From the NCBI GenBank assembly GCA_004357505.1, contig SMWC01000113.1:1-32596 (forward strand): DNA of 32,596 nt. The letters run 5' to 3'. The translations under genes were made by a program, and so were the position numbers. Origin of the DNA: Gammaproteobacteria bacterium. GTDB lineage: Bacteria; Pseudomonadota; Gammaproteobacteria; Steroidobacterales; Rariloculaceae. The notes below the pieces were generated by a model. The model was not told where the DNA came from and made no database searches. It saw only the letters and a program-made list of their open reading frames with translations. Of the stretch, positions 13,410-29,724 are shown piece after piece. Each line of letters opens with the position of its first letter. The stretch's first letter is position 1.

Positions 13410-15260
13410 ATGGATAGCCGGACCCAAACCAAACTAGATCGCCCGCACCCCCTGACCGGTACCGTGATGACCGGTGCCGACATGATGATCCAGGTGCTTG
13501 CCGACGAGGGCGTGAAGACGATCTTTGGCTATAGCGGCGGCGCGATTCTACCGACTTACGATGCGGTCTTTCGCTACAACCAAACCCACGCTGAGAATGG
13601 CGTCGAGCCAATGCCGCTGATAGTCCCCGCCAATGAACAGGGTGCGGGATTCATGGCTTCAGGCTTCGCCCGCGCGACCGGCCAGGTCGGCGTCGCTATC
13701 GTCACCTCGGGTCCCGGGGCCACGAACTGTGTGACCCCGGTTCGAGATTGCATGGCGGACTCGATTCCGATCGTTGTGATCTGTGGGCAAGTCGCGACCG
13801 CAGCGATCGGCACGGACGCTTTTCAGGAAGCACCGGTGATCGGCATCATGGGCTCGGTCGCCAAGCATGTTTTCCTCGTGACCGATCCTAAGCGGCTGGA
13901 ATCTACGCTGCGGTCTGCGTTCGAGATTGCGCGCGCGGGTCGTCCTGGCCCGGTCGTCGTAGACGTTCCCAAAGATGTACAGAATTGGGAAGGAACTTTC
14001 CACGGCGAGGGCTTGCTGTCGATGCCCGGCTTTCAGCATCGCGTGGAAGCAGTCCGGAAGAACCAACTGGATGATGTGCGTTGTAAAGAATTCTTTGCGA
14101 TGATCCAGGAGAGCAGGCGGCCATTGATTTATGCTGGTGGCGGCGTGATCAACGGCAACGCAAGCGACGAGCTGCGGAGTTTCGCATCGAACTTCGATAT
14201 CCCGGTTGTAACTACATTAATGGGCTTGGGCGGATTCGATACGACTCACCCGCTAGCCATGCACATGCTGGGCATGCACGGCACCGCGTACGCGAACTAT
14301 GCGGTGGACGACTGCGATTTGCTAATCAACATCGGTGCCCGCTTCGACGATCGGGTCGCTGGAGATCCGTCGAAGTTCGCGGCCAATGCCCGATCTGTGA
14401 TTCATTTCGATATTGATCCATCCGAGATCCAGAAGGTCAAGCCGGTAGACTGGTTCCATGTCGGCTTGCTCGCCGATGCGTTAGCCGCATTGATTGATTA
14501 CGGGCATCGCAGCGGCATTGCTACGGACTTTGGCACGTGGCATGCAGAGCTTAAGGAATTGAGGTCGACCTATGCGCTGAACTACGATCGCGACAGCTCA
14601 CTAATCCAGCCCAACTACGTCATCGAAGCGATTAACGAGATCACGAAGGGCAAGGCAATCATCACGACCGGCGTGGGGCAGCACCAGATGTGGGCAGCGC
14701 AATACTTCGACTTTCGTGAGCCCAGACTCTGGCTCACATCGGGAAGCATGGGGACAATGGGTTTTGGTTTACCGGCCGCCATTGGCGCTCAGTTCGCGCG
14801 CCCCGACCGGCTCGTGATCGACCTGGACGGCGATGCCAGTATTCGTATGAACCTAGGAGAACTCGAAACAGTCACGACCTATAACTTGCCGATCAAGATC
14901 GTGGTTCTGAACAACTACGGTGACGGCATGGTCATGCAATGGCAACGGATGTTCTTCAAGGGGCGTCTGTCCGGTAGCGACAAATCGCTACGGAAGAAGG
15001 ACTTTATCAAAGCTGCCCAGGCCGACGGTTTCCCTTATGCGAAGAAGCTCGATCGCAAACAGGATGTCCCTGAAGTACTGGCGGAATTTTTGCGCTACGA
15101 CGGCCCGGCATTTCTCGAGGTCATCATCGACCCCGAAGCCGGGGTCTATCCCATGGTACCGCCCGGCCTGTCTTATCGGGATATGGTCACCGGCGATTTC
15201 ATCCCGAGTCGCTACGACAACCCAGTGGTGGCGACGCCCGACGCATCGGAAACGTTCTAG
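13410..15260 (+). CDS. ilvI: Acetolactate synthase large (catalytic) subunit, biosynthetic type
   Basis: ThDP enzyme motifs: GADMMIQVLADEGVKTIFGYSGGAILP, TSGPGATN, GSMGTMGFGLPAAIGA, DGDASIRMNLGELET, VLNN. ATG 13410 is chosen; the ORF-track start at 13233 adds 59 non-homologous codons and overlaps ilvH. The ilvI versus ilvB naming is arbitrary. Confidence 0.9.
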   Translation: MDSRTQTKLDRPHPLTGTVMTGADMMIQVLADEGVKTIFGYSGGAILPTYDAVFRYNQTHAENGVEPMPLIVPANEQGAGFMASGFARATGQVGVAIVTSGPGATNCVTPVRDCMADSIPIVVICGQVATAAIGTDAFQEAPVIGIMGSVAKHVFLVTDPKRLESTLRSAFEIARAGRPGPVVVDVPKDVQNWEGTFHGEGLLSMPGFQHRVEAVRKNQLDDVRCKEFFAMIQESRRPLIYAGGGVINGNASDELRSFASNFDIPVVTTLMGLGGFDTTHPLAMHMLGMHGTAYANYAVDDCDLLINIGARFDDRVAGDPSKFAANARSVIHFDIDPSEIQKVKPVDWFHVGLLADALAALIDYGHRSGIATDFGTWHAELKELRSTYALNYDRDSSLIQPNYVIEAINEITKGKAIITTGVGQHQMWAAQYFDFREPRLWLTSGSMGTMGFGLPAAIGAQFARPDRLVIDLDGDASIRMNLGELETVTTYNLPIKIVVLNNYGDGMVMQWQRMFFKGRLSGSDKSLRKKDFIKAAQADGFPYAKKLDRKQDVPEVLAEFLRYDGPAFLEVIIDPEAGVYPMVPPGLSYRDMVTGDFIPSRYDNPVVATPDASETF

Positions 15261-15348
15261 CCCGCTCGCGGCTCTAGGGCGCGTCCTGGTGGGGCAGCTA
15301 CGACAAGCGCCGGCCTGAGGAACCGGGTACGCCACCATTAAGCCGACC

Positions 15349-16602
15349 TCAGGAGGGCAGAGCAGACCAGTCCTTGACCACACGGTTGACCGCCTGTATC
15401 AGCGTGTCCAGCTCTTCGGCGCCGATGACCAGCGGCGGCATCAGATAGATCACATCTGCGAAGGGCCGCACCCAGACGCCGGCCTCCAGAAATCGTTGCC
15501 GCAGAGCGTCCAGATCGGGCACTCGATCCAGCTGCACGACACCGATGGCCCCTTTGACTCGTACATCGCGAACCTGTGCCAGCCCGCGGCAAGGCGCCAG
15601 GCCCGCCTCGAACCCGGCCTCGATGGCCGCCACCTGCTCAAGACGCGGCTCCGATTCGAATAAGTCCAGTGACGCGTTCGCCGCCGCGCAGCCCATCGGG
15701 TTACCGCAAAATGTCGGGCCGTGCACGAGCGCCTGATCGATCGAGTCGGACAGAAAGCTCTCATAAACATGACGCCTGGCGATTGTCGCCGCCAGCGGCA
15801 CGGTGCCTCCGGTCAACGCCTTGGAAAGCGTCATGATATCCGGCACGACACCGGCCTGCTCGCACGCGAACATCGTTCCCGTGCGCCCGAAACCGGTCGT
15901 AATTTCGTCAAAGATAACAAGCAGGTCATAGCGGGCGGCAATCTCGGTGATTTTCGCCAGAACTTCGGGTTGATGAAACTTCATGCCCGCCGCTGCCTGA
16001 ACGAGCGGCTCGATAATGACCGCGGCGAGCTCGGCAGCATGTTTGGCCACGACCTGTTCGAACTCGGTAAATTCGGCAGCGCCCCGCGGCAACTTGACCA
16101 CGAGCTGCTGGGCTAAGACACCGCTCAACAGCCGATGCATACCTTTATCGGGATCACAGACCGACATGGCTGCGAACGTGTCGCCGTGATAGGCGTGCTG
16201 AAAACTCAAGAATCGCGAGCGGGCCTGTACACCCTGGTTAATCCAGAACTGCACCGCCATCTTCAACGCAATCTCGACAGACACCGAACCGGACTCGGAG
16301 AAGAAGACGTAGTCGAGATCTCCGGGAAGCAGGCCCGCAAGCCGACGGCTCAGATCCAGGACGGGCTTATGCACTAGGCCGCCGAGCATGACGTGGGGTA
16401 ACTGCTCAAGCTGTGCCGCCACAGCGGCAGCGATATGCGGGTGGTTATAACCGTGGCAGGCCGTCCACCACGACGAAGTACCGTCGATCAAGCATCTGCC
16501 GTCCGCCAAATAGATACGTACGCCCTCGGTTCGGGTCACCATCTGCGGCGCGGGCACCGTCTGCATCTGCGAGTACGGCAGCCAGAGGTGGGATGAAGTC
16601 AT
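15349..16602 (-). CDS. bioA: Adenosylmethionine-8-amino-7-oxononanoate aminotransferase
   Basis: Class III aminotransferase with BioA N-terminus [51 protein letters not shown], and PLP-Lys context LSKALTGG. Confidence 0.93.
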
Positions 16603-16736
16603 CGACTGCTTTGTTATTGCTGAGGTGCGCCAAGTTTAGGGACACTCGGAGGAGTCGGCAACACAAGGTAGCGTTACATGAGCTGCGAGCTCGTATGCCG
16701 TGAGTAGGTATACTTGTGACTCATCCGCACAACTCG

Positions 16737-18101
16737 ATGATGATGACAGAAATTACTTGCTTCAAAGCCTACGATGTCCGCGGCCGAGTCCCAGAGGAAC
16801 TGAATGAGGACATCGCTTATCGCATCGCCCGAGCCTATGCCGACTTCATCCAGCCACAGCGTGTTACGGTCGGTCGCGATATCCGCCTGTCGAGCGCCGA
16901 CCTTGCGCGAGCGGTGATACGGGGCCTTACTGATTCAGGCGTCAACGTCGTCGATATCGGCGTCGGCGGCACCGAACTCGTCTACTTCACCACATTCCAT
17001 GAAAAACTCGATGGCGGGATCATGGTGACCGCCAGTCATAATCCCCCGGACTACAACGGCATGAAGTTCGTTAGAGAGGAGTCGCGACCTATCAGCGCGG
17101 ATACGGGATTGCAGGAGATACGCGCCTCGGCCGAAAGAGACGACTTCACCCCAACGGCTAACGAGGGCTCCGTCGCCGAGCTGGATATCATTCCGGCCTA
17201 CATCGAGCATCTGCTGTCCTACGTCGACGTGGCGAGACTCTCGCCGCTAAAGATCGTCGTGAACGCCGGCAATGGTGGCGCCGGTCCGATCATCGACCGA
17301 CTGGAATCACATCTGCCGTTCGAATTCATCAAGCTGCACCACGAACCCGACGGCACGTTCCCGAACGGCGTACCGAACCCGATGTTGGCAGCCAACCGGC
17401 AGAGCACAATCGAACGAATCACAGAGACGGGCGCCGATCTCGGACTGGCTTGGGACGGCGACTACGACCGTTGTTTCTTCTTTGACGAACAAGGCCGCTT
17501 TATCGACGGCTACTACGTCGTCGGCTTGCTCGCACAGTCATTTCTCGACAAGTCCCCCGGGGACCGCATCGTCCACGACCCGCGACTCATCTGGAACACG
17601 CTTGAAATCGTGCAACAGACAGGTGGCCAGGCTATTCAGAGCAAGTCCGGACACGCGTTCATCAAGCAGACCATGCGCGAGTACGACGCAGTCTACGGCG
17701 GGGAGATGAGCGGACATCACTATTTCCGAAACTTCTCTTACGCCGACAGCGGCATGATTCCGTGGCTGCTGGTCGCAGAAATCCTGAGCCGAACCGGGAC
17801 GGCGTTGTCCTTGCTGGTCGAGGAGCGCATCAGGCTCTTCCCGGCCAGTGGAGAAATAAATCGAGCGGTCGACGATGCCGCCGAAGTACTCGAACGTGTA
17901 GAAGGCCTGTACGCCCAGGACGCCACAACTGTCGATCATGTGGACGGCGTCAGCGTTGAATTTTCGGACTGGCGCTTTAACCTGCGCGCATCGAATACGG
18001 AGCCACTCGTACGGCTGAACGTAGAGACCCGCAACGACCCCGAGCTGATGCGCGTGCGAACCGACGAACTGCTGAAAGCCGTGGGCGGAAAGCCTGGGTA
18101 G
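16737..18101 (+). CDS. manB: Phosphomannomutase/phosphoglucomutase (ManB/CpsG type)
   Basis: Colinear with E. coli ManB/CpsG over the whole length: CFKAYDVRG, TASHNPPDYNGMKF (catalytic Ser loop), AWDGDYDRCFFFDE (Mg site), GGEMSGHHYF, NLRASNTEPLVRLNVE. The start is one of three consecutive ATGs at 16737-16745; the ORF track uses GTG 16716. Confidence 0.9.
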   Translation: MMMTEITCFKAYDVRGRVPEELNEDIAYRIARAYADFIQPQRVTVGRDIRLSSADLARAVIRGLTDSGVNVVDIGVGGTELVYFTTFHEKLDGGIMVTASHNPPDYNGMKFVREESRPISADTGLQEIRASAERDDFTPTANEGSVAELDIIPAYIEHLLSYVDVARLSPLKIVVNAGNGGAGPIIDRLESHLPFEFIKLHHEPDGTFPNGVPNPMLAANRQSTIERITETGADLGLAWDGDYDRCFFFDEQGRFIDGYYVVGLLAQSFLDKSPGDRIVHDPRLIWNTLEIVQQTGGQAIQSKSGHAFIKQTMREYDAVYGGEMSGHHYFRNFSYADSGMIPWLLVAEILSRTGTALSLLVEERIRLFPASGEINRAVDDAAEVLERVEGLYAQDATTVDHVDGVSVEFSDWRFNLRASNTEPLVRLNVETRNDPELMRVRTDELLKAVGGKPG

Positions 18102-18144
18102 TTATCTTCAAACGGAGATTCCAGATTCTCCTGCGACAGATCCT

Positions 18145-19344
18145 GTGTCAGACTCCGATCGACGTCGAACCGGGACACAAGTTTTGACTCAGGATTCTTT
18201 ACAGCAGTTCGCTCACGAGAAATTGGTTCGCCTGGAAGCGCAACTTCTGCAGCGGGAACTCGTGATAACCGATCGCATCGCCCCAGGGATCACTCGACGG
18301 GGTGCGACACAGCTGATTTCGTTCGCCTGCAATGATTATCTCAGCCTATCCCGCCATCCGGATGTGATTCAGGCGAGCGAGGAAGCCACTCGACGCCTCG
18401 GCGTTGGAGCGGGCGCATCACGCCTGGTGACCGGCAATCACTCACTATATCAGCGCCTCGAAGCACAGCTCGCGAAACTCAAAGGCACCGAGGACGCGAT
18501 CGTGTTCGGTAGCGGCTACCTCACGAATATCGGCGCGATTCCCGCGCTGATGGGGCGGTCCGATCTGATCCTCATGGACGAAGCTTGCCACTCCTGCTTG
18601 TACTCCGGCGCCAGGCTCGCACGAAGCCGAATTTTTACATTCAAACACAACGACGTCGGCGACGCCGCGGAGCTGCTCCGCTTGCACCGCAACGAGTATC
18701 GCTATTGTCTGCTCTTGACCGAGGGTGTGTTCAGCATGGATGGGGATCGAGCACCCATCGCCGCTTTGCTCAAGCTCGCGAACGAGTTCGATGTCTGGCT
18801 CATGACCGATGACGCTCACGGTCTAGGCGTGGTAGGCGACGGCCGAGGATCGAATATCGACGCAGGCACCGCGTTGCCCGTACCGCTACAGATGGGAACG
18901 CTGTCCAAGGCCGTGGGCGCTTACGGCGGATATTTGTGCACGAGCCGGGCAGTTGCCGACTTGATACGGAACCGTGCACGAAGCCTGATCTACTCGACCG
19001 CCCTGCCCCCAGGAACGGTGGCCGCCGCGTCAAAGGCGCTGGAGATCATTGCGACGGACAAGGCCTTAGTACGGAAACCCATCGAGCGAGCGCGGCTCTT
19101 CACGGATAAGCTTGGCTTACCCACCGCACAGAGCTCGATCGTACCGTTGCTGCTCGGCAGCTCGGAGCGAGCGTTGAAGGCCAGCGAGCATTTACAACAA
19201 GCTGGCTATCTGGTCGTCGCGATTCGCCCGCCGACGGTACCAGTCGACACCGCGCGCCTTCGCTGCACATTCTCGGCTGCTCACGAAACGGCCGACGTTG
19301 AAGCTTTCGCGCGCGCAGCCGCAGAGGCACTAGCGGCAGTATGA
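18145..19344 (+). CDS. bioF: 8-amino-7-oxononanoate synthase
   Basis: Alpha-oxoamine synthase motifs: FACNDYLSLS, GAGASRLVTGN, DDAHGLGVVG, and PLP-Lys context GTLSKAVG. The start is uncertain (GTG 18145 or TTG 18184; no in-frame ATG). The stop overlaps the bioD start (ATGA). Confidence 0.9.
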   Translation: MSDSDRRRTGTQVLTQDSLQQFAHEKLVRLEAQLLQRELVITDRIAPGITRRGATQLISFACNDYLSLSRHPDVIQASEEATRRLGVGAGASRLVTGNHSLYQRLEAQLAKLKGTEDAIVFGSGYLTNIGAIPALMGRSDLILMDEACHSCLYSGARLARSRIFTFKHNDVGDAAELLRLHRNEYRYCLLLTEGVFSMDGDRAPIAALLKLANEFDVWLMTDDAHGLGVVGDGRGSNIDAGTALPVPLQMGTLSKAVGAYGGYLCTSRAVADLIRNRARSLIYSTALPPGTVAAASKALEIIATDKALVRKPIERARLFTDKLGLPTAQSSIVPLLLGSSERALKASEHLQQAGYLVVAIRPPTVPVDTARLRCTFSAAHETADVEAFARAAAEALAAV

Positions 19345-20012
19345 GCCGATTCTTTATCAGTGCGTCGGGAACAGAAATCGGCAAGACGTTCGTAACCAGT
19401 ACGTTAATAACGCAATTAAGAGCCGCGGGGCACAGCGTCGACGCACTCAAGCCTGTGGCGACCGGTTACGACCCGCGGGAGCCCGAACGGAGTGACAGCG
19501 GTGTGCTGCTCGCCGCGCTCGGCAGACCGATAGACACACGGCTCATTGAACAGATCACCCCGTGGCGCTTCGAGGAGCCTTTGTCGCCGGACATGGCCGC
19601 CGATCGGGAAGAACGGTCTATCCCGTTCACGCAGCTCGTCGACTTCTGCGCCGAGCGTCCCCGTGTCGACGTCACACTGATCGAAGGCATCGGCGGCATC
19701 ATGGTGCCGCTAGACTCGTCACATACCGTACTGGACTGGTTAGAGGCACTGGCCATACCGGTTCTGCTGATCGTCGGTGGCTATCTCGGCACGTTGAGTC
19801 ACACGTTGACGGCAGTCGGTATGTTGCGCTCCCGGGGTCAGGAACTGGCCGGCATCATCGTCAATGAGTCCGCCGATCAGCCCGTTACGCTGGTGGAAAC
19901 TGCGAACGTCATCGCGCGATTCGTCGAGCCGGCGCCGGTGCTACTATTGCCGCGGCTGCAAGGCACTGATCAAGCACCGGATTTTCTGCCGCTACTCGCA
20001 CCCTACCTTTAG
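19341..20012 (+). CDS. bioD: Dethiobiotin synthase
   Basis: P-loop FISASGTEIGKTFVT, LIEGIGGIMVPL, and the expected size of 223 aa. Translationally coupled to bioF. Confidence 0.9.
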   Translation: MSRFFISASGTEIGKTFVTSTLITQLRAAGHSVDALKPVATGYDPREPERSDSGVLLAALGRPIDTRLIEQITPWRFEEPLSPDMAADREERSIPFTQLVDFCAERPRVDVTLIEGIGGIMVPLDSSHTVLDWLEALAIPVLLIVGGYLGTLSHTLTAVGMLRSRGQELAGIIVNESADQPVTLVETANVIARFVEPAPVLLLPRLQGTDQAPDFLPLLAPYL

Positions 20013-20160: not shown

Positions 20161-20544
20161 CTACTGCCGAGCGATTCGCTCGACCGATCCCGTCGGAATC
20201 AACGTCAACTGCGCACGACAATCGAACGCCAGGCCGTCAAGGTCCTGCTCGTCGGCTGAAGCGTACTGCTCACCGTAGGCATCGACGAAAATTCTCGACG
20301 CGGAAATACCAGCACGAATCAACGTCTCGCGCACGCTCGCAGCCCGTTGCGCTGACAGTTGTACGTTGTGCTCCTCCGCACCGCGAGCATCTGCGTGCCC
20401 TCCCACACGAATGGACATTCCCTCCATGCGCGCCAGCAAGTTCGCCAGCCGACTCAGACGTTTCTGAGTTTCATCAGCGACCACGGTGTTATCGGTTTTG
20501 AACAGGATATGGACATCCAACGCCTCTCCGACCGCATCTTGCAT
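20161..20544 (-). CDS. OmpA-family peptidoglycan-binding domain (C-terminal segment; probably one gene with 20557-20877)
   Basis: OmpA_C-like motifs: LSRLANLLARMEGMSIRVGGHADARGAEEHNVQLSAQRAASVRETLIRAGI. No signal peptide and no RBS of its own. It is in the same frame as the upstream ORF and separated from it only by TAG plus 4 codons. Confidence 0.7.
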   Translation of the reverse strand: MQDAVGEALDVHILFKTDNTVVADETQKRLSRLANLLARMEGMSIRVGGHADARGAEEHNVQLSAQRAASVRETLIRAGISASRIFVDAYGEQYASADEQDLDGLAFDCRAQLTLIPTGSVERIARQ

Positions 20545-20556
20545 AGTCCGGGCGTC

Positions 20557-20877
20557 CTACCGGTAGCGGGTCTCGAGCATTTTGATTTGCCGCTCGCCGC
20601 TTTCAATCAGACCATTGAGGTCGGCGACCTGCTCGCGCGCGTCTGTCCAGCGTTGCTCGAACTTGATGCGCGCGCCCTGTTCCGCATCGAATCGGTCTCC
20701 GAGCCAGATCCCTGCGGCAGCGCCCAGCAACATCCCGATCGGACCTCCGGCAGCTGCGCCGATCACCGCGCCGCTACCCAGGCCGAACTTCTCAAGTTTG
20801 GTTGACTTGCTTGGTTCTGCGGCCCAACTCGCGCTCGTCAGTGTGGTAGCAAGAATTACAATTATCGCGTGTCTCAT
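20557..20877 (-). CDS. Signal peptide / glycine-zipper / coiled-coil segment (N-terminal part of the split OmpA-family protein)
   Basis: ATG 20877 is preceded by AAGGAG with a 7-nt spacer. The signal peptide is MRHAIIVILATTLTSASWA, and the Gly-zipper is GLGSGAVIGAAAGGPIGMLLGAAAGIWLG. The frame ends at TAG 20557-20559. Confidence 0.7.
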   Translation of the reverse strand: MRHAIIVILATTLTSASWAAEPSKSTKLEKFGLGSGAVIGAAAGGPIGMLLGAAAGIWLGDRFDAEQGARIKFEQRWTDAREQVADLNGLIESGERQIKMLETRYR

Positions 20878-21172
20878 GACTGTGCTCCTTTTGGTTCCTG
20901 GTGCAATACGCACGCCACCATTGAAGCTCAGGCTAGCGGCAAACCGGTGATGAATTCGGCCGAGAAGACGCTTCGAATATGACCAATTCTGACGACAGGC
21001 ATGCTGCCGGCCTTCGAAGGTCAGCTCAATAGGGGCGCGCTATGAGAGCCCCGCACGCCGGCAGAGCTGGCGAGGATACCGGACGAAAGTCCGCCGTCCC
21101 GGCAGCCTCGCAGGCACACACGGCAGCAGGACGCTCTAACTGCCAAGGCCGAACGAAGGAAGAGTCGCGCCG

Positions 21173-22177
21173 CTAGCGGCGAAGCGAAGGCAAGGCGACG
21201 AAAGTGCCCCCATTGCGCTGACACAGCACCCGCATGAGTGTCGCGAAACGGGCCGCCGTCAGCAGCTCGCCATTAGTCACTTCATAGTAGACGGGGAAAG
21301 CCACGGCGTGAATCCGGACCCGCCGTTGACCGTCCGGGCCCGCTTTATTACGCCGATCGACCTCTCTTACGACCGCATTGATGGATCCGGACGCGAAGTC
21401 GTCGCTGTAGACATACAGACTAATCTTCTTGTCGGGATCGTAGAATGTATCGATCGCCTTAAGAATGCCTTCCCTGGGACTCGAGTTGGAAAAAGCGCTC
21501 CAGTTCCGCAGCGCATTGAGTATGGCTTCGCGTCTCGCCGGCGTATCCGGAATCCACTCATTGCGATAGCTCTTGAACATGTACTCGCCCATGTCGTTGA
21601 ACACCTGGATACCCTTGACCTGCGGATAGACTTCCAGAGTCTCACGAAGCTGCTGCTGGACGCGATTCCAGGCGTAACGCTGCATGCTACCGGATGTGTC
21701 AATAATGAAGATGATGTACTCGCTGTCGACCGGGATACCGCCGATCACGTAATCGTCAGGATCGGGTTTGTAGTCGGCCAATAGACGCTGCATCTCTTCG
21801 GTTAGCCGCTGCTTCGCTTCGGCAAGTCGTCCTGCCAACTCGGCCGAGATGTCCGAATCGTCCTCTGTTGCGAGAAATTCAGCGCGTATTCGCGTCAACT
21901 CCCGTTCGAGCGACGCAATCTGAGTCTGGTCTTCATCGACACGCTCAATGGTAGATAACCGCTCGCGCCGCACGACCTCGGTCTCACCGAGTATCTCGTG
22001 TAGCTCCAGCTGATAGCGGGCGATCAATCCTTCCAACTCGACGTGGCTTTCTTCGAGCCGAATCGGCTCGAAGATCTTGGTTAAGACCAGCAGCAAGATA
22101 ACCGCCCCGAACCCGCAACAGATCACGTCCAGGAATGCCAGACCGCCGGTCTCCACTTCGCGTCGACGATATCTCAT
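21173..22177 (-). CDS. ExbD/TolR-like TM anchor / coiled coil / von Willebrand factor A domain protein (paralog 2)
   Basis: ATG 22177 overlaps the upstream stop (ATGA). The N-terminus MRYRRREVETGGLAFLDVICCGFGAVILLLVL has a basic tail followed by a TM helix with Asp17. About 110 aa are heptad-rich and Glu/Leu/Arg-rich. The vWA MIDAS motif is IIFIIDTSGSM. Confidence 0.85.
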   Translation of the reverse strand: MRYRRREVETGGLAFLDVICCGFGAVILLLVLTKIFEPIRLEESHVELEGLIARYQLELHEILGETEVVRRERLSTIERVDEDQTQIASLERELTRIRAEFLATEDDSDISAELAGRLAEAKQRLTEEMQRLLADYKPDPDDYVIGGIPVDSEYIIFIIDTSGSMQRYAWNRVQQQLRETLEVYPQVKGIQVFNDMGEYMFKSYRNEWIPDTPARREAILNALRNWSAFSNSSPREGILKAIDTFYDPDKKISLYVYSDDFASGSINAVVREVDRRNKAGPDGQRRVRIHAVAFPVYYEVTNGELLTAARFATLMRVLCQRNGGTFVALPSLRR

Positions 22178-23265
22178 GGCCAATCCTCCGAAGGCGCCAT
22201 CATCGATCCGCCGGTGCTGAGCGCCAGCCACCAGTAATCCGGGGCAGCCTGGGGATCACCCTCCATCGCGTAGAGAATGACATTGACGGGAACGTTGAAC
22301 GGTAACTCTCGTGCGGCACGAGTGAAATGGCCGTGACGTTCCCTGCCGCTGACGCCGGCACGGGTCGGGATGATCTCCCCCATCGTCGGCAGGCCGTCTA
22401 CGAGCAGGTAGATATTGTCGGGCTTGGGATCCAGCGGCCGCATAGATGCGAACGCCGCATGCAGGCTCGTGGGTCCTTGCGGCACGGTGGCGCGTAAGGT
22501 CTCCACAGCCTGATCCAGTTGACCGCCATCCGTAATCGTCAACCACTGACCGTCGGTTCCCTCAATCAGCGACCACGCTCGGTCATTGAAAGCGAAGATC
22601 TGAAATTGCGTGCCGGGCGTGAGCTGCGTCGTCAACCAGTCCAGCGTGTCGACCACCTGCCGCCACTTCGGTGCAGCGAGCTGCTGGTCTATCGGCATAT
22701 TCCTGCGGCGAAGGATATTGACGAGGGTACGGTCCAGCATGCTGCCGGAAGCGTCCACAAGGATCACGACGCGTTCGCCGCCCATTCTCATACCCGTCAA
22801 GTATTGGCGGTTACCGTCCCCGGTGAAACTACGAATACGGTTGCCGGCGTCCTCCAGTGTAATACTCGCTGCAGAAAGACGCTGCGTCTCCTCCTCCAAT
22901 GAGTCAAGCTCCGAGCGAAGTCGCTCGATGGCTTCTTGCTGAGCGGTCGTGTCCGCCGTCAACGTACTGAATTCCTCTGCCGTCAGCGAAATCTCCGTAA
23001 TAATCTCTTCTCTCAGACCCCGCAGGATCGCCCACTCCTGGATGAGTTCGGCCAACTCCTGTTGAATTTGCACCAGATTCTTGCGACCAACGAGCACCTG
23101 TAACTCCATGCGGTCCACTTCACTGGCGAGCTCGTCGAGAATGACCTCGCGACGTTCATCGATATTCGCATTGATAATCATGAAGAGCAGAACCACGGCG
23201 CCGAGACCACAGGTCATGGCGTCGAGGAACGACAACGAAAACACGGTGATGGCCTTACGTGCCAT
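22174..23265 (-). CDS. ExbD/TolR-like TM anchor / coiled coil / von Willebrand factor A domain protein (paralog 1)
   Basis: ATG 23265. The N-terminus MARKAITVFSLSFLDAMTCGLGAVVLLFMI has a TM helix with Asp15. A coiled-coil-like stretch runs ELASEVDRMELQ...LRSELDSLEEETQRL. The vWA MIDAS motif is VVILVDASGSM. It overlaps the upstream gene's stop by 11 nt. Confidence 0.85.
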   Translation of the reverse strand: MARKAITVFSLSFLDAMTCGLGAVVLLFMIINANIDERREVILDELASEVDRMELQVLVGRKNLVQIQQELAELIQEWAILRGLREEIITEISLTAEEFSTLTADTTAQQEAIERLRSELDSLEEETQRLSAASITLEDAGNRIRSFTGDGNRQYLTGMRMGGERVVILVDASGSMLDRTLVNILRRRNMPIDQQLAAPKWRQVVDTLDWLTTQLTPGTQFQIFAFNDRAWSLIEGTDGQWLTITDGGQLDQAVETLRATVPQGPTSLHAAFASMRPLDPKPDNIYLLVDGLPTMGEIIPTRAGVSGRERHGHFTRAARELPFNVPVNVILYAMEGDPQAAPDYWWLALSTGGSMMAPSEDWP

Positions 23266-24655
23266 CGGCTTCCTCTATCACGATCGCCTGCAGTTCCTCT
23301 CCCGGGGAACCGATGCGGATCACATCAGCGGGTTGAATCGCAAGCTCACCAGAGACTCGTCTCTCATTGACGAATGTCCCATATTGGCTTAAATCGCTGA
23401 GTTTGAGCTCGCCGTCACGACGTACCAGCTCGCAGTGCGAGCGGGACACGCCACTGTGCTCGCCATTCAGCACAATCGTCCGACGCCCACCCCGGCTCTC
23501 GCGACCAATCAAGAGTCCCTTGCTGTCCACGCGGAAAGCGACCCCACGGTAGACGATGTGCGTCGCCGAACGCTCCCGCTGTCGCGCCGAATCGCGGCCG
23601 GTATCCGCAGTCGCCGACGTTACCACCTGCGTCACCGGGGCGCCCTCTTCTCGCCACGGCAGTCGTTTCAATAATTTAACTTGCCCAGGATTCGCATCGA
23701 TACTGTCAAGACTCTGTAATGCGCCCAGCGCCGCCGCACCGACGGGCAACGGTAGAATGTGCGCATCATCCAGCCGCGAGAGTTCATTGACGACTCCCGG
23801 CAAGCCGAGCAGACGGTGCGACACCTGTACGACCAGGCTGTCTCCGGTACTTCTGCACTGCGCAATCAATTGCACCAACGCGCGAAAAAATCCGGCGGCA
23901 ACGCCAAGCAATTGGTCGCGCTTCACCTCTACGCAAAGCTCCTTCCCACCATGCGGAAGCTTAAGCTCGGCACGGTCCTGCTCATGCAGGCTCTGCAACC
24001 ACATCGGCAAACGATCGTAGACGAGCTGTTCGCTCTCGGCGCCGTGAAACGGATCAAATCGTGTCGCCAGAACGAAGATCTCCGCGACGCGCTTGGCCCA
24101 TAAGTCCATCAGCGAGGCAAGGCCGACGCCATCGATCACCTGCTCCGTCGTTGCAGCAACATCGCTAGCCTGTTCGAGCGTCGTCGCGGAAACACGATGT
24201 AATCCGGCGTCCAGGTAGATCAATTGCTGGCCGGGGTAGGGTCTAGGGCTCGCAGCCGCAGCAGTATTCACTAACGATCGTACCGGCATTCCGCACTCCT
24301 GGGCGAGTCCCAACAACAGCCCGAGCTGCTCGCGGCTGTAGTGGTCAGGCACAACCAGCAAGGCATCCTTGTCCTCACCGCCGTACCGTTTCCAAAGGTT
24401 CTCAAGCTGCGCGAATGCAAGCTGGGCCGTGTTATCGACACCTTCCAGACCCGCGCTCCCCTGCTTGAGACTCAGGTTCTCCCAGTAACGGTTATTGCTA
24501 TCGCGCGGTCTGAGGCGCGCCTGAGAATAAGCATCATTGCCCGTCAGAATTTCACCGTCGGCGAGCAGCGCATAACCAGGTTCCGTGCCGAGCACTCCTG
24601 ACTCATCGGCGATAACCAGGTTCGCATCATTGATATCGATAGCGAGCGTGCTCAC
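23255..24655 (-). CDS. Hsp70/actin-like (ASKHA-fold) domain with degenerate nucleotide loops, fused to a canonical C-terminal FHA domain
   Basis: Three Hsp70-like motifs occur in the correct order. [13 protein letters not shown] corresponds to [50 protein letters not shown] corresponds to [50 protein letters not shown] corresponds to DLGGGTFDVS. The FHA domain at aa ~365-466 reads LLIGRE...[10 protein letters not shown]...[16 protein letters not shown]...DVIRIG, with the canonical Gly-Arg, Ser-x-x-His and Asn. The start is GTG. Confidence 0.8.
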   Translation of the reverse strand: [466 protein letters not shown]

Positions 24656-24665
24656 GAATCTCTCG

Positions 24666-25475
24666 CTATTGCACGCCGCCGCGCGACTGCATGTGACGGA
24701 TCAGGTTGTGATCGATATAAGTCTGCGTATCAAATACGGCTCGTTCCTGCAGCGATTGCAGTTGGTGAACCAAAAACATCACGACAATAGAGATCAACAA
24801 CGCAATGAAAGTGGAATTAAACGCGGTACCGAGACTCAGCGTCACACCCATGATATCGCCGTCGACGGCACGGTGAGCTTGTCCGAGCGCGTCACCGATT
24901 CCGCGAACGGTACCGATAAATCCGACAGATGGAATTGCCCAAGCGATATAACGAATCATCGACAGCTCAGACTCCAGCCTGCCACCTTCCGATTCGCACA
25001 GAGTATTGGCGACGGAAGACACATCCTGGATGTTGCGCGTTGAGCCGAAACGCTCCAATGAAGACAACAGCACACGCGGCAGTAACATGTCGCGCGATCC
25101 ACCCGGTAGCGCCTGCAGCGTGCGCGCATATTCTCGCGAGTCCTCGGGCAGAATTCTGACGCCGTCTGGAACGGGCACGAGCACCTGTTGCAACAGCTTT
25201 CGCTCGCGCAGAGATGTAGTTGCCTTGTAGCCCATGATGGAAAACGCCCACAGCATCAGCACAAAGCACGATTCCTGTTCGAAGTCCTTGATCAAGACCC
25301 AGAAAGAACGCTCGACCGTGAAATTCGTGTCTTCCTGAATCTGCAACGCCTGTTCATTCAGGACTGCGGTCGCCCTTGGCCTGACGACCGTCACATAGGT
25401 CGCGTGCACGACAATGATCGCGATAATCAGGGAAAATACCTGGAAGAGGAATTCTGTTTGAAAGTTACGTTTCAT
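24666..25475 (-). CDS. MotA/TolQ/ExbB-family proton channel protein
   Basis: Four hydrophobic segments with a ~95-aa loop between TM2 and TM3. C-terminal family signature: IRYIAWAIPSVGFIGTVRGIGDAL...GVTLSLGTAFNSTFIALLISIVVMFLV. Confidence 0.88.
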   Translation of the reverse strand: MKRNFQTEFLFQVFSLIIAIIVVHATYVTVVRPRATAVLNEQALQIQEDTNFTVERSFWVLIKDFEQESCFVLMLWAFSIMGYKATTSLRERKLLQQVLVPVPDGVRILPEDSREYARTLQALPGGSRDMLLPRVLLSSLERFGSTRNIQDVSSVANTLCESEGGRLESELSMIRYIAWAIPSVGFIGTVRGIGDALGQAHRAVDGDIMGVTLSLGTAFNSTFIALLISIVVMFLVHQLQSLQERAVFDTQTYIDHNLIRHMQSRGGVQ

Positions 25476-25494: not shown

Positions 25495-25704
25495 TTATAT
25501 GTTGACCGGGAAGATCACTTCTTCGTCCGCGTCGATCTCGTCGCTGGGAATAAAAATCTCATCGAGCGGGCGCGTGTCCGGAGGAGCGGGCGGCGCCACC
25601 GTGGTTGTCGTGTCGACCTCTGGGGGGGCAGCGTCCTGACCTACAGACGACACCGATAGGGCCATCAAAGCCAATAGCGCCAATAGCATTCGTGGTAAGT
25701 GCAT
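25495..25704 (-). CDS. Small secreted Pro-rich/acidic peptide (69 aa)
   Basis: ATG 25704 has GGGAG about 8 nt upstream. The signal peptide is MHLPRMLLALLALMALSVSSVG. The mature ~47 aa read QDAAPPEVDTTTTVAPPAPPDTRPLDEIFIPSDEIDADEEVIFPVNI. The gene stops 20 nt before the motA-like start. Confidence 0.6.
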   Translation of the reverse strand: MHLPRMLLALLALMALSVSSVGQDAAPPEVDTTTTVAPPAPPDTRPLDEIFIPSDEIDADEEVIFPVNI

Positions 25705-25756
25705 CGTCATTTCTCCCGACAAAGACTCATCAAGTTTAGACCAAACTGGCCACAGA

Positions 25757-28192
25757 TCATTCCAGATTACGCGCGATACGAAAGCCGATATCCTCTCTGC
25801 TATCGCTGCTGTAATTGCGGTAGGCGAGGCGCAGGTCGGTGATGGTCGCGCTCCGCCAGCTCGAGCCTCTGATCACGTGGAAACGGCCCTGTTCGGGACC
25901 CAGCGGATCAACAGCCACGGTCTCGGTCTGGGGAGAGCCGATCTCCCAGTAATCGAGCACCCACTCTGCCACGTTACCGCCCAGATCGTATACGCCCACG
26001 GCGTTCGGCGGAAAATTCCGCGCCGGCGCCGAGACATTGAAACTGTCGTTGTAGGTCACAAGCGTTGTCCGTAGCAGCGTTGCCGCCGAGACATCCGCGA
26101 AATTGCCCGAACGATCGGGGGGCGGCAAGGTATTACCCCACGGGAACGTCAGGGACTCGTCCTGACCGGCGAATCGTGCTGCCCAGGCCCACTCCGCTTC
26201 GGTCGGCAGCCGATAACCACTGCGCAGAGGTCTCACGGGAACCTGCGCACCGTCAACCTGTTCGTAGACCGGTTGAAAGCCATCGCGGATACTGAGCCAG
26301 TTCAGGAACTCGGCGATCTCATCCCAGGTCACGCGGACGACCGGCTGATCATCTTCGTTCAGGGAGACGCCGCCATACGAACCGGAGTCATGATCTGCAC
26401 GGAATGCCCGAAACTCTGCGTTGCTGACCTCCTGCACACCGAGATAGAACGCCTCGCTGATACTCACAGCCCGTAGGACTTCGTTCGAGCGGCGTCCTTG
26501 CTCGCGACGCGATGACCCCATCATGAAGTCACCCGACGGAATCAGCGTTAGTACCTGCGCAAGGCTCGTCTGCACCTCCTTCTCGTAGCCCGAGCCCGTA
26601 CTTGTATTCAACTCCTCCAGGGTCACATCGAGTATCTGCGGAAACCCCGGTTTTGGCGTGACTTCCCGCGCCTGCTCGGCGAAGCCCGCGAGTCGAATCT
26701 CGATCCGATGACTGAGCGCGGACAGTATTAGCTCGCGCGGCGTCACGCCTAGCTGCTCCCCATCAACCCAAACTTCGGCAGCGTCAGGATCGCTGCGAAC
26801 CTCGACGATCCCCATTCGCGCGGTCATCGAGAGTGTGAGCCTGCGATCGCTGTCAGCCACGACGGAGAGCTCCTGCTCGATCGAGTCGAATCCCGGTTTC
26901 GTCAATACAAGCCGATGCGGACGCTCTGGCGTAAGACGCAATGTCAGGGGCGTCTGGCCGCGATACTCGCCATCTACACTGACTGCGGCACCGGCCGGCT
27001 CGGAAGCAAGTTCGACGCGTCCATCGGCCTGTGTCAGTTCGACCTGCGGCAGCGTTTGTGGTTGGTCCGCCAAAACCGAGACGACGTCCGCCCAGGCGTT
27101 GTAGCCGCGCAGCCGAACCTCGATCAGCCGTTCCCCGGCGCTAAGCTCCATCACCAGCGGCGTCGCTCCGGTGACGGTTCCGTCCACCAGCACGGCAGCC
27201 CCGGGTGGGGCGCTGGTCACGGTGATCGGCGCCCAGTTAGGCGTCAGTTCGGCCACCAGACGCTGGTGCTCGCCGCCGCCGATGACGTCCAGCTCATGAA
27301 CTTCGGCCAGGAACCGTTCCGCGACGAACTCGATCTGATGCCGCCCGGTCGTGATCTCGGCATCGGTCAGGGGAGTGATACCAAGACGCTCACCGTCCAC
27401 ACGGACTTCCGCACGTACGTCCGGCTCGGTCGTCAGCGTCACCAGGCCCGGAAGCCGGATCATTTCGATTTCGATCGTCTGATCCGGTGCCGAAGTGACG
27501 TTGATTTCAATATCCAACGGATAGTAGCCCGCGAGCTCGGCCACAACCCGATGCGATCCCGCGCTCAAGAGCAAACGATCCCCCATTCTGATTTTCAGCA
27601 GCGTGCCCGGCAACCCGACCGTATCGGGCTCGGGTTCGACGATCAATTCGACCGACTTCGCGGTGAACGCGAACCAACCCAGTACGGCCAGTACGACAAA
27701 CGCGCCACCGACCACCAAGGCGCTGCGACTCGGTTTGACGCGCAACGTTCCGGACTTTTTCTCACCCAACGGCCGAAACGCGACTGGCGCGATCTCAATT
27801 TCATCGAGATTCGCCGCCTCCCGCGCCAGTTCCTCCAGATCGGGCGGTGCGGTATCGCCGCCGGTCACGACCCCTGAGATTTTCAGGTTCAATCGTTCTC
27901 CGCCAAGCGAACAGTCGAGCCTGGCAGTATCCAGCGCAATCGTCTCACCGTTCTTAAGCCAGCGTGTCCCGGCTACCGGTTCACCGTCGATCCGCAGATT
28001 CCGGGTGTCTCGACCGGGCTGAATAAAAAAACTGCCGTCAAGCCAGCCGATCTGAAGCGATCCCGAGACTCCCTGCAGGCGAACGTCGCTATTAATGTCG
28101 CCACCGATCGTTACCGGCAATTCGGCGGCGCTGAAATGCCGCTCTTGGCCACCGACCGACGTTGTCAGTACCCGGTGATTCGCTGCCGTCAT
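25757..28192 (-). CDS. FHA-like domain / TM helix / five PEGA repeats / FGE-sulfatase (SUMF1-like) domain protein
   Basis: The N-terminal FHA-like fold (PVTIGGDINSDVRLQ...FFIQPG...LRIDGEPV...LKNGETIAL) lacks the canonical Arg and His. The TM helix is ALVVGGAFVVLAVLGWFAF (aa ~157-177). PEGA-like units include VRVDGERLGITPL, VLVDGTVTGATPL, VSVDGEYRGQTPL and VWVDGEQLGVTPR. The C-terminal FGE-sulfatase motifs are FMMGSS...YLGVQEVSNAEF...GYRLPTEAEWAWAAR...YDLGGNVAEWV...VIRGSSW...IGFRIARN. The ATG overlaps the upstream stop (ATGA). Confidence 0.88.
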   Translation of the reverse strand: MTAANHRVLTTSVGGQERHFSAAELPVTIGGDINSDVRLQGVSGSLQIGWLDGSFFIQPGRDTRNLRIDGEPVAGTRWLKNGETIALDTARLDCSLGGERLNLKISGVVTGGDTAPPDLEELAREAANLDEIEIAPVAFRPLGEKKSGTLRVKPSRSALVVGGAFVVLAVLGWFAFTAKSVELIVEPEPDTVGLPGTLLKIRMGDRLLLSAGSHRVVAELAGYYPLDIEINVTSAPDQTIEIEMIRLPGLVTLTTEPDVRAEVRVDGERLGITPLTDAEITTGRHQIEFVAERFLAEVHELDVIGGGEHQRLVAELTPNWAPITVTSAPPGAAVLVDGTVTGATPLVMELSAGERLIEVRLRGYNAWADVVSVLADQPQTLPQVELTQADGRVELASEPAGAAVSVDGEYRGQTPLTLRLTPERPHRLVLTKPGFDSIEQELSVVADSDRRLTLSMTARMGIVEVRSDPDAAEVWVDGEQLGVTPRELILSALSHRIEIRLAGFAEQAREVTPKPGFPQILDVTLEELNTSTGSGYEKEVQTSLAQVLTLIPSGDFMMGSSRREQGRRSNEVLRAVSISEAFYLGVQEVSNAEFRAFRADHDSGSYGGVSLNEDDQPVVRVTWDEIAEFLNWLSIRDGFQPVYEQVDGAQVPVRPLRSGYRLPTEAEWAWAARFAGQDESLTFPWGNTLPPPDRSGNFADVSAATLLRTTLVTYNDSFNVSAPARNFPPNAVGVYDLGGNVAEWVLDYWEIGSPQTETVAVDPLGPEQGRFHVIRGSSWRSATITDLRLAYRNYSSDSREDIGFRIARNLE

Positions 28193-29724
28193 CCGATCGG
28201 CTCGACACAGCGCACCTCGACCGGAGCTAACTCCCGTCCAGGCAGTACGGTAAATGTTGTGCGGACATCGCGATAGCCGTGGCGACTACCAACAGCGGTA
28301 TAGTTTCCGGGCCGTATCTGAACCTGAGTGACGGCGAAGGTGCCGAGCAAGCCGACGCGATAAAGCGTAACGTTGGTGAGCTCGTCGGAGTGAAGCTCGA
28401 CAGTCACGAGCGTCGACGCGAGGACCACGAGCCGATTCAGGTCGGCGATCTGCTCTTCAAGCCGCGGTCCCGGATCCTCCACGCTCCGAGCATCCGCTAC
28501 TAAACCGCCGGCGTCGGCCAGCACACGGTCGTCGAACAACAGGGTCGGATTACCGATCAGGTTAACCAGCTTCGCCTCCAGATCGGCCCTCAGCACAGAG
28601 CGCTCGAGTCCGGCCTGAGCAAAAACCAGCGTTGCATCGGTCACGAGCAGATCGCGGTAGAGTTGAATGGCCCGCTCCCACAGCTCACGGCGCTCAAAGG
28701 CCAGCGCGCGTGCTTCGACCAGCGCGATCTGTTCCAATTTCTGTCCCTGCTGTGCCTGGATTTGGCCATCGAGCGCCTCGGCAGAACCCGGCCGCAGGAT
28801 CAACGCCTCGCCGAACAGTTCAAGGGCAGCGGCGAATTCTTCTTCCGCCAGCGCCGTCAGACCTTGCGACATTCGTGTCTCGAAGCGTCGATTGTCGATA
28901 CGTGCGGTGACCGCAGTCAGCGCCGACCGCGCCGGCGCCCAGGATGGGTCGAGTCCGAGCGCTGCCCGGAAAGCTCGCGCAGCCTCCTCCAGATCACCCT
29001 GCCGTTCGAGCTCGGTGCCCTGCTGTACGAGCACGAGCACCTCCGGAAGACGCTCGGCCCGCTCGAGTCCCGCTTGAGCGGGCGCATTGCCAGCTTCTAT
29101 TCCGATAACGAGCTGAAATTGTTCTAGGGCCAGTCGCGCATTGCCGGCATCGAGTGCCGCGTTACCGGCGCTGAGCGCGGCCGTGATGATTTCCGCCGAC
29201 CGGCCGAGTAATTGCTCGCCAATCTGCAGCGCGTTGGCGTATGCCGGTACGGCGTCCTGGAACGCGTCCGCAAGATAAGCGTCGTCGCCGGCACGAGAGC
29301 TCTGCTGATACTCCTCCCAGGCGTCTCCTCCCCACTCGGCCGCGGCTAGTCCGTCCAGCCGAGCCTGTTGAGTGAGTAACTCCGCCAACAACTTTTCAGC
29401 CTGATCCCTGAGCGTCGCTAGCTCTGTCGCGGTCAGCACAGGCCCCTCAGGTTCCTCGGGCAAGACCTCTACAGGCAGCGCCAGCACCGGTTCCTCGGGC
29501 TGTTGCTCCGCGACCCACAGCGGTAATACGAATATGACGGCTAGCACCAGCAGCAGCGACACGACCAGGGCGGTACCCACGAGTAGCCGCGAGTGCCGGC
29601 TGTCTCTCTGCCGGGCAGCTGTAACGGGCTTGACGCGCGCCAAGCCCAGTTTGACCGGGATGATGGTCTCTTCGTGAGCGGTCGCTTGCGGGTCTGTGTC
29701 TGTCACAACAGTCGGCTTACTCAT
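28189..29724 (-). CDS. Single-pass membrane protein with TPR-like repeats and a C-terminal PEGA-like beta domain
   Basis: The TM helix is LLVGTALVVSLLLVLAVIFVLPLWV (aa ~47-72). It is followed by repeated A-x-x-x-Y/F-x-x-A-L helical pairs (AYLADAFQDAVPAYANALQIGE, LALEQFQLVIGIEAGNAPAQAGLERA, EEAARAFRAALGLDPSWAPA, AAALELFGEALILRPGSAEA). The C-terminus reads VTLYRVGLLGTF...IRPGNYTAVGSRHGYRDVRTTFTV. The start overlaps the kinase stop by 8 nt. Confidence 0.8.
   Translation of the reverse strand: MSKPTVVTDTDPQATAHEETIIPVKLGLARVKPVTAARQRDSRHSRLLVGTALVVSLLLVLAVIFVLPLWVAEQQPEEPVLALPVEVLPEEPEGPVLTATELATLRDQAEKLLAELLTQQARLDGLAAAEWGGDAWEEYQQSSRAGDDAYLADAFQDAVPAYANALQIGEQLLGRSAEIITAALSAGNAALDAGNARLALEQFQLVIGIEAGNAPAQAGLERAERLPEVLVLVQQGTELERQGDLEEAARAFRAALGLDPSWAPARSALTAVTARIDNRRFETRMSQGLTALAEEEFAAALELFGEALILRPGSAEALDGQIQAQQGQKLEQIALVEARALAFERRELWERAIQLYRDLLVTDATLVFAQAGLERSVLRADLEAKLVNLIGNPTLLFDDRVLADAGGLVADARSVEDPGPRLEEQIADLNRLVVLASTLVTVELHSDELTNVTLYRVGLLGTFAVTQVQIRPGNYTAVGSRHGYRDVRTTFTVLPGRELAPVEVRCVEPIG

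Follow-up and report, generated by a model that had tools for sequence, protein, structure and literature searches.

Two adjacent genes in a 32,596-nucleotide contig of a gammaproteobacterium (SMWC01000113.1, assembly GCA_004357505.1; the whole stretch is called the window below) encode proteins, vWA1 and vWA2, in which a domain of the von Willebrand factor A (vWA) type is tethered to the membrane by a single N-terminal transmembrane (TM) helix that contains an Asp. We propose that vWA1 and vWA2 probably form the two-helix core (axle) of a 5:2 MotA/TolQ-like proton-driven motor, because the Asp is invariant in both paralogs, the two genes are obligately paired, a MotA-like gene is their neighbor, a pair of Thr residues in the MotA-like protein is invariant, and the operon has no gene for a conventional B subunit. 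The domain architecture and folds of the two proteins, the conservation of their residues, the pairing and synteny of their genes, and the lack of a conventional B subunit in the operon are established here.

The TM Asp is invariant across a large and widespread family

Homologs of vWA1 and vWA2 were collected from a 5.8-billion-protein index, a library of 50%-identity representatives (1341 representatives at E≤1e-3) and 80 species genomes. The family is large, with thousands of 90%-identity clusters; as lower bounds, there are more than 3350 homologs of vWA1 and at least 8000 of vWA2, and relatives were confirmed in at least 584 species genomes. Its carriers include marine and sediment Gammaproteobacteria, Acidobacteriota, Desulfobacterota, Myxococcota and Verrucomicrobiota; among the loci compared, the Gammaproteobacteria are represented by Woeseiaceae, Chromatiales and others, and some loci are from Kiritimatiellae.

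The N-termini of the two proteins carry the TM Asp as D15 in MARKAITVFSLSFLDAMTCGLGAVVLLFMI (vWA1) and as D17 in MRYRRREVETGGLAFLDVICCGFGAVILLLVL (vWA2), exactly as quoted in a preliminary description of this DNA, which had compared them with the E. coli ExbD (D25) and TolR (D23) sequences, also quoted exactly. Retention of the Asp among homologs was a check named beforehand in that description, and the residue was indeed retained: it was present in all 80 unique vWA1 and all 75 unique vWA2 N-termini from the 80 species genomes, and in 111 of 111 N-terminally complete 50%-identity cluster representatives, the other representatives having been set aside as fragments, miscalled starts or proteins of different architecture. 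When a Verrucomicrobia member that is 32% identical to vWA1 served as the query, the TM Asp was found in 111 of 112 new matches, and the odd one, which starts MDCICCGFGAV, still keeps the Asp. Among the N-terminally complete homologs examined, the invariance spans at least five phyla.

The Asp lies in the TM motif R-R-x4-F-S-[LM]-S-F-[LM]-D-x-[MI]-x-C-G-[FL]-G-A-[VI], the conservation of which far exceeds the mean column identity over the whole protein (42%), and, judged from these alignments, conservation of the Asp is beyond chance. Both D15 and D17 sit 9–10 residues into a hydrophobic stretch of ∼26 residues, as do D25 of ExbD and D23 of TolR. Neither TM helix contains a His, and the SHLS/His motif of TonB/TolA-type transducers is absent from the sequences and from the column profile.

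Both proteins carry a vWA head on a stalk of constant length

AlphaFold2 modeled vWA1 (mean predicted local distance difference test score, pLDDT, of 88.8) as an unbroken helix from residue 8 to residue 131, made up of the TM segment and a ∼100-residue stalk, followed by a disordered linker (residues 133–151) and an alpha/beta domain (residues 160–363). The model of vWA2, built from a shallow alignment (pLDDT 69, with 80–94 in the globular core), contained a TM helix (residues 13–36), a break (37–43), helices (44–135) and a vWA fold (154–328). Since the vWA domains of both proteins score below the Pfam gathering thresholds, fold evidence was required for the vWA assignment. The best Foldseek matches of the vWA1 head in the PDB were the vWA domains of CLCA1, TEM8/CMG2, ITIH1 and Bacteroides BatB (target TM-scores ≤0.69), and the vWA2 head matched the vWA domains of ITIH1, alpha2delta and CLCA1. 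Aligned with each other by BLASTP, vWA1 and vWA2 matched over the N-terminal 180 residues only (25% identity, E=3e-12), and by this comparison they are paralogs.

The DASGSM and DTSGSM motifs that had been pointed out as the starts of metal ion-dependent adhesion sites (MIDAS) are present in the two heads, and the remaining MIDAS residues are conserved. In vWA1, the D171 column holds 51 Asp and 7 Glu among 59 sequences, S173 and D290 are found in all 59, S175 in 54 and T266 in 45. In vWA2, D160, S162, S164 and D259 are each present in 38 of 38 sequences, with the residue at the Thr position not confidently assigned. On the strength of these columns, both vWA heads have a complete MIDAS site and are predicted to bind metal.

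The distance between the TM Asp and the MIDAS Asp varies little, being 152–158 residues in vWA1 (81 homologs) and 139–146 residues in vWA2, across phyla and at ∼45% identity (loci L001–L083). This constant spacing suggests that the stalk of the vWA pair works as a molecular ruler. Arg-Arg precedes the TM helix in 85–90% of homologs, and the net charge after the helix is neutral to negative. From hydrophobicity and charge, together with operon partners that are exported or periplasmic, we infer that the N-termini are cytoplasmic and the vWA heads periplasmic.

The two paralogs differ just beyond the TM helix. At residues 37–39 of vWA2 (22061–22069, minus strand), E37 (36 of 38 sequences) and P38 (38 of 38) lie within a conserved K-x-x-E-P-x-x-[LI]-E motif that is absent from vWA1. 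By analogy, this E37-P38 asymmetry, which coincides with the helix break in the AlphaFold2 model, might act like the MotB plug. A vWA1-type head (46–62% identical over residues ∼150–363) was also found in P0147, P0218, P0249 and P0267, where the Asp helix and stalk give way to a membrane sensor of the BlaR1 peptidase M56 type, to which the head is fused.

The operon encodes a MotA/TolQ-like protein and no conventional B subunit

The MotA-like protein encoded upstream of the vWA pair matches PF01618 with 47.7 bits (cut-off 22.9). When its family alignment was compared with E. coli TolQ by hhalign (probability 90%), T189 aligned with T145, T222 with T178 and P182 with the conserved Pro, and all three residues were present in 70 of 70 sequences of the MotA-like family. 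At the position of TolQ E173, the family has Val, Thr or Ile. Two TM segments of the protein exceeded the hydrophobicity cut-off and two more were seen by eye; it may have four, as MotA does.

By Pfam and NCBIfam, none of the operon proteins matches ExbD, TolR or MotB, and since the operon genes abut or overlap, there is no room for such a gene within the operon. Similarly, no true homolog emerged when E. coli TolR and ExbD were searched by phmmer against every open reading frame (ORF) in 83 related loci (1.3 Mb), and the precomputed Pfam annotation of L001–L003, L088 and L089 included no ExbD or MotB. The sole phmmer match to TolR (L055, 6903–7184) was rejected, as it is a small secreted protein that matches by its hydrophobic signal peptide. 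Thus, the claim in the preliminary description that a MotA/ExbB homolog without another partner lies upstream of the pair was correct as to the family and the missing partner, but the homolog is not the immediate neighbor, as the gene for a 466-aa protein lies between.

The pairing of vWA1 and vWA2 and their operon are conserved

In the window, the genes are transcribed from the minus strand as a tight operon in the order lipoprotein, kinase, TPR, PEGA/FGE, small secreted protein, MotA-like, 466-aa FHA, vWA1, vWA2 and OmpA-like (Table 1). The vWA1 ATG overlaps the 3′ end of the upstream gene by 11 nucleotides, and the vWA2 ATG at 22177 overlaps the vWA1 stop codon as ATGA, which bears out the proposed coupling of the two vWA genes. 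With the start in this overlap, vWA2 is 334 aa long, and the 352-aa ORF of the mechanical ORF list is over-extended.

Synteny was counted over the related loci that have sufficient flanking DNA. vWA2 immediately follows vWA1 in every locus (72 of 72), the 466-aa Hsp70-like/FHA gene immediately precedes vWA1 in 70 of 75, and a MotA-like gene is adjacent in 55 of 59 (93%). The PEGA/FGE-sulfatase (61 of 61 loci), TPR (58 of 58) and lipoprotein (53 of 54) genes are, across phyla, as conserved as the core. The Ser/Thr kinase gene was found in 11 of 54 loci and the OmpA-like gene in 24 of 62. Pelagicoccus mobilis and Oleiharenicola lentus, Verrucomicrobia with cultured-species names, have a four-gene core that encodes the MotA-like protein, a ∼495-aa protein, vWA1 and vWA2. 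L008, L010 and L013, which are sisters of L006, L007 and L011 (see below), have a diverged copy of the MotA-like gene (41% identity), placed after vWA2 and not before the Hsp70-like gene.

Evidence against the motor and alternative explanations

Several results weigh against assigning vWA1 and vWA2 to the core of such a motor, and the first group concerns the sequence of the anchors. A Pfam search with the first 60 residues of vWA1 and vWA2 returned nothing at E≤10, and the full-length proteins did not match PF02472 either. A profile of 43 TM segments, compared with all PDB sequences, found no ExbD, TolR or MotB and only a chance match to NDUFB4. With the same profile, E. coli TolR and ExbD each scored ∼0 bits (hmmsearch with filters off), and hhalign against these two proteins gave a probability of 0.5–0.8%, though the family Asp aligned to ExbD D25. 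The second group concerns gene linkage. Four of the 59 loci have no MotA-like gene inside 10 kb: L006, L007 and L011, from Gammaproteobacteria metagenome-assembled genomes (MAGs), retain the remaining operon, and L070, from a Kiritimatiellae MAG, is a lone vWA pair with no motor or accessory genes nearby. Furthermore, the Hsp70-like/FHA gene separates the motor gene from the vWA pair, and its linkage to the pair (70 of 75 loci) is tighter than that of the motor gene.

By these profile comparisons, the anchors of the vWA pair are a sequence family of their own and not members of PF02472, and their likeness to ExbD/TolR is at the level of a motif. Of the "ExbD/TolR-type" anchor claimed in the preliminary description, the motif and the depth of the Asp therefore stand, but homology does not. 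Judged by their position, charge and context, the anchors would work like the ExbD/TolR/MotB helices.

The alternative that best survives is a scaffold like PilM/PilN/PilO (or GspL/GspM), in which vWA1 and vWA2 form a periplasmic heterodimer and the actin/Hsp70-like protein, encoded immediately upstream, grasps their conserved N-termini in the cytoplasm as PilM holds PilN. The TM Asp would then serve helix packing or a PilM-type contact, and the MotA-like protein would provide power from the side or via another partner. As in pilM-pilN-pilO, the gene for a cytoplasmic protein of actin fold precedes those for two bitopic coiled-coil paralogs, and the N-terminal domain of the 466-aa protein matches the Hsp70 nucleotide-binding domain. 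The gene for this protein is also the tightest neighbor of the vWA pair and is kept in the MotA-less L006, L007 and L011 and in Verrucomicrobia. However, PilN and PilO have neither a TM Asp nor a MotA partner, whereas the window proteins, which lack the INLLP motif, combine a TM Asp with vWA heads and have a MotA-like gene next to theirs. Moreover, the conserved motif of the vWA pair lies inside the hydrophobic helix rather than in a free cytoplasmic peptide, the free tail being ∼5–8 residues, and a scaffold leaves unexplained a MotA/TolQ protein with an intact Thr ring but no B subunit. We therefore regard a scaffold of this type as unlikely, though it deserves more weight than either of the two explanations that follow.

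A second possibility is that vWA1 and vWA2 are plain membrane-anchored, BatA/BatB-type periplasmic vWA adhesins or chaperone-like proteins that are co-regulated with the MotA-like gene, with the Asp serving only to dimerize the anchors. The vWA1 head has BatB as one of its structural matches, the head is portable, as the BlaR1/M56 fusions illustrate, and the vWA pair of L070 stands alone. Nonetheless, an invariant buried Asp and a C-G-F/L-G-A face, kept in both paralogs across at least five phyla at ∼45% identity, represent a constraint that far exceeds the need of a simple anchor. The 93% synteny with a MotA-like gene also argues against simple anchoring, as does what is established for 5:2 motors, in which MotA/TolQ/ExbB proteins are not known to function unless a two-helix core is present. 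We judge this explanation to be quite improbable. An inverted topology, with cytoplasmic vWA domains in a phospho-signaling complex with the FHA, kinase and Hsp70-like proteins, is very improbable, as Arg-Arg precedes the TM helix and the net charge beyond it is neutral to negative, a fixed-length stalk of 100 residues suits the spanning of a periplasm and most operon partners are exported or periplasmic, even though vWA/FHA/kinase combinations exist in cytoplasmic systems and the operon encodes three cytoplasmic signaling-type proteins.

Comparison with known systems

The preliminary description held that no described motor uses a vWA-tipped stator. However, TM-tethered vWA proteins of this kind, named TPH-vWA and found mostly as heterologous pairs, were described in 2025 (Williams-Jones et al. 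2025, Mol Biol Evol 42:msaf138, PMC12204202, section 8 and Fig. 4c–d). TPH-vWA genes co-occur tightly with tolQ homologs, without tolR, exbD or motB, in Proteobacteria and Verrucomicrobia, and AlphaFold 3 placed the conserved Asp of their TolR/ExbD-like "trans-pore helix" inside the Thr ring of the pentamer (PMC12204202). The family is a computational prediction with Idiomarina loihiensis as the exemplar organism (PMC12204202). The window shares a single N-terminal TM helix with Asp, the vWA fold, the heterologous pairing, a tolQ-like neighbor, the lack of a syntenic tolR, exbD or motB, the lack of the SHLS/His motif, and the Thr pair. By these shared features, the window locus is very probably a member of the TPH-vWA family. 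What differs is the gene set, as the main text of PMC12204202 does not include the Hsp70-like/FHA, PEGA/FGE-sulfatase, TPR, lipoprotein and small secreted protein genes. Beyond that paper, literature searches that took in a MotAB phylogeny of 2025 and a Ton/Tol review of 2026 turned up no further description of a vWA-tipped motor. The preliminary description is therefore partly supported: its functional reading, at which PMC12204202 arrived independently with AlphaFold 3 complex models, is sound, its homology was overstated and its idea is not new.

The system resembles ExbB-ExbD and TolQ-TolR, in that its A subunit is a PF01618 protein with the Thr pair equivalent to T145 and T178 of TolQ. 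Like ExbD and TolR, each vWA protein starts with a short basic tail, and the Asp of its single TM helix sits equally deep, in the pattern hydrophobic-hydrophobic-Asp followed by a helix of ∼16 hydrophobic residues. In contrast, the periplasmic alpha/beta domain of ExbD/TolR is replaced by a long stalk and a vWA domain, and, unlike Ton and Tol, the system has two different B subunits and no TonB- or TolA-like third component. MotA-MotB and PomA-PomB share with it the 5:2 motor logic, an Asp-bearing B helix and, in part of the family (24 of 62 loci), an OmpA-like peptidoglycan-binding module. However, this module is encoded here as a separate downstream protein and not as the C-terminus of the B subunit, and its surroundings contain no flagellar genes.

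A heterodimeric core has precedents in AglR-AglQ/AglS of Myxococcus gliding and in paired ExbD1/ExbD2, each of which combines one A subunit with two B-type subunits, although these are ordinary TolR/ExbD-family B subunits without vWA heads. GldL-GldM and PorL-PorM also have a two-helix core, from which a long extension in the periplasm reaches partners in the envelope, and the operon encodes a protein of the FGE-sulfatase fold. Nevertheless, GldL does not belong to PF01618, GldM lacks a vWA domain, no type IX secretion system (T9SS) genes are present here, and the match to GldK (104.8 bits for the PEGA/FGE protein against the NCBIfam model, below the cut-off of 350) reflects the shared FGE-sulfatase fold only.

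Accessory proteins of the operon

The 466-aa protein, whose gene separates the vWA pair from the MotA-like gene, has a C-terminal FHA domain (Pfam, E=2.9e-12). Its family profile, compared with the PDB, matched the Hsp70 nucleotide-binding domain over the N-terminal two thirds, with SSB1 at E=2.4e-4 and with DnaK and other Hsp70s more weakly. The 495-aa protein of Oleiharenicola is a clear homolog (hhalign probability 99.85%), and the Pelagicoccus counterpart is weak (59%). We conclude that the Hsp70-like/FHA protein is a core component of the conserved operon.

The small secreted protein is conserved across phyla, but only in its last ∼20 residues, F-[IV]-P-[ST]-E-E-[IV]-x-A-D-x-x-[IV]-x-F-P-[VT]-D-I, which follow an acidic, Pro-rich linker of variable length. 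In most loci, including L001, L004, L005, L012, L014, L016, L020, L021 and L023, an ORF with this motif lies between the PEGA/FGE and MotA-like genes. Given its conserved acidic C-terminal motif, the small secreted protein stands out as a candidate docking peptide or ligand of the MIDAS.

By eye, the first 150 residues of the PEGA/FGE protein looked FHA-like, but an FHA domain there was unsupported by Pfam and by hhalign to the FHA region (2%), and we do not claim one. The lipoprotein (∼455 aa) had no relative in Pfam, the PDB or PADLOC, including when its family profile was used. With the exception of generic kinase models, no anti-phage defense model of PADLOC matched the operon proteins.

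The OmpA-like gene is interrupted by an in-frame stop codon at 20557–20559, which splits it into ORFs of 118 and 127 aa in the same frame. The corresponding residue is Gln in L004, a locus that is 87% related (RYR*DART in the window and RNRQDARV in L004), and the intact gene in relatives encodes 239–240 aa. A pseudogene, strain-level variation or an error in the assembly could each explain the interruption.

Table 1. Genes and protein features of the vWA operon in the window, with positions and strand.
Feature	Position (strand)	Length or residues	Description
vWA1	22174–23265 (-)	363 aa	Bitopic protein (ORF and start); Arg/Lys tail, TM helix with D15, stalk helix, linker, vWA
vWA1 TM helix	23173–23250 (-)	6–31	Invariant F13, D15 (codon 23221–23223) and G22; near-invariant C19, G20 and A23
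vWA1 stalk helix	22873–23172 (-)	32–131	Presumed periplasmic; presumed coiled coil with vWA2
vWA1 vWA domain	22177–22788 (-)	160–363	Predicted MIDAS D171-x-S173-x-S175, T266, D290
vWA2	21173–22177 (-)	334 aa	Paralog of vWA1; ATGA-coupled to vWA1
vWA2 TM helix	22070–22141 (-)	13–36	Invariant D17 (codon 22127–22129) and C21-G22-F23-G24; then near-invariant E37 and invariant P38
vWA2 vWA domain	21194–21718 (-)	154–328	Invariant D160-x-S162-x-S164 and D259
MotA/TolQ/ExbB-like protein	24666–25475 (-)	269 aa	Pfam PF01618; presumed pentameric A subunit
Hsp70/actin-like FHA protein	23255–24655 (-)	466 aa	Cytoplasmic; Hsp70/actin-like N-terminal domain and C-terminal FHA; between MotA-like gene and vWA pair
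Small secreted protein	25495–25722 (-)	75 aa	Signal peptide, acidic/Pro-rich linker, conserved C-terminal motif
PEGA/FGE-sulfatase protein	25757–28192 (-)	811 aa	Bitopic; cytoplasmic N-terminal region, TM 158–176, then periplasmic four PEGA and FGE-sulfatase (GldK/PorK-like) domains; Pfam
TPR protein	28189–29724 (-)	511 aa	Single TM helix 53–71
Ser/Thr protein kinase	29717–30541 (-)	274 aa	Pfam Pkinase, E=5.5e-27; lineage-specific accessory
Orphan lipoprotein	30601–31983 (-)		LAGC lipobox; likely start MRRFG at nucleotide 31968; first conserved gene of the operon
Glycine-zipper/OmpA-like gene	20161–20913 (-)		Peptidoglycan-binding; broken by in-frame stop 20557–20559

Downstream of the operon, positions 13233–20012 hold flanking housekeeping genes (aminotransferase-like, phosphomannomutase-like and bioF/bioD-like, together with an ORF that by eye resembles the acetolactate synthase large subunit), and in the relatives L001–L003 the neighbors on the OmpA side include AAA_26 (BioD-like) and Aminotran_1_2. 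These housekeeping flanks and their counterparts in L001–L003 indicate that the location is chromosomal and syntenic and not a mobile island; a tblastn search against plasmids gave no matches. Farther away, and unrelated to the operon, a gene at 1818–5780 (minus strand) encodes a 1320-aa STAND-like protein with an N-terminal AAA_35/AAA_16 NTPase and C-terminal WD40 repeats.

A proposed motor with a vWA-tipped axle

From the conservation, architecture and synteny described above, we infer complex formation, proton use and rotation, as well as the identity of the ligand and the biological role of the vWA motor. In the model that we favor, vWA1 and vWA2 would form a heterodimer. The MotA/TolQ-like protein, whose gene lies two genes upstream, would form a pentamer, and the two TM helices of the heterodimer would occupy its pore to give a 5:2 ion-driven motor. 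In each TM helix, the Asp lies about a third of the way across from the cytoplasmic side, ahead of the small-residue face C-G-F/L-G-A, which is invariant or nearly so, and the two Asp residues would face the ring formed by the invariant Thr189 and Thr222. Proton flow at this Asp/Thr site would then drive rotation of the pentamer relative to the dimer. The stalk would hold the vWA heads ∼15–20 nm out in the periplasm, where their MIDAS sites could grip an acidic ligand. Candidate ligands from the same operon are the small secreted acidic protein, the PEGA/FGE-sulfatase protein, the lipoprotein and the OmpA-like protein. On the cytoplasmic side, the Hsp70/actin-like FHA protein, joined in some lineages by the Ser/Thr kinase, probably gates the motor or couples to it.

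A broader and distinctly more tentative proposal, which we would not yet favor, is that the operon as a whole might encode an undescribed envelope-spanning machine of ∼10 genes. In such a machine, the vWA motor would not stand alone but would be physically coupled in the cytoplasm to an Hsp70/actin-like ATPase-FHA protein, controlled in some lineages by Ser/Thr phosphorylation, and in the periplasm to the PEGA/FGE, TPR, lipoprotein and small secreted components, with the motif of the small secreted protein serving as the MIDAS ligand.

The window is a clear-cut representative of the family that was predicted in 2025, and in that respect its value is confirmatory. What is added here is a conserved set of accessory genes, which leads to hypotheses for the regulation of the motor (through the FHA, kinase and Hsp70-like proteins) and for its ligand (the small acidic secreted protein). 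Pelagicoccus mobilis and Oleiharenicola lentus, as carriers under cultured-species names, are possible hosts in which to test these hypotheses. Each of the well-studied 5:2 ion-driven motors (MotAB, ExbBD, TolQR, AglRQS, GldLM and ZorAB) powers a distinct envelope process. A MIDAS-tipped axle would add a different output to such motors, namely to grip a ligand and pull or twist it, and the ∼10-gene machine, if it exists, would be a new functional class of machine driven by the proton motive force, beside Ton, Tol-Pal, the flagellar stators, Agl-Glt, T9SS and Zorya.

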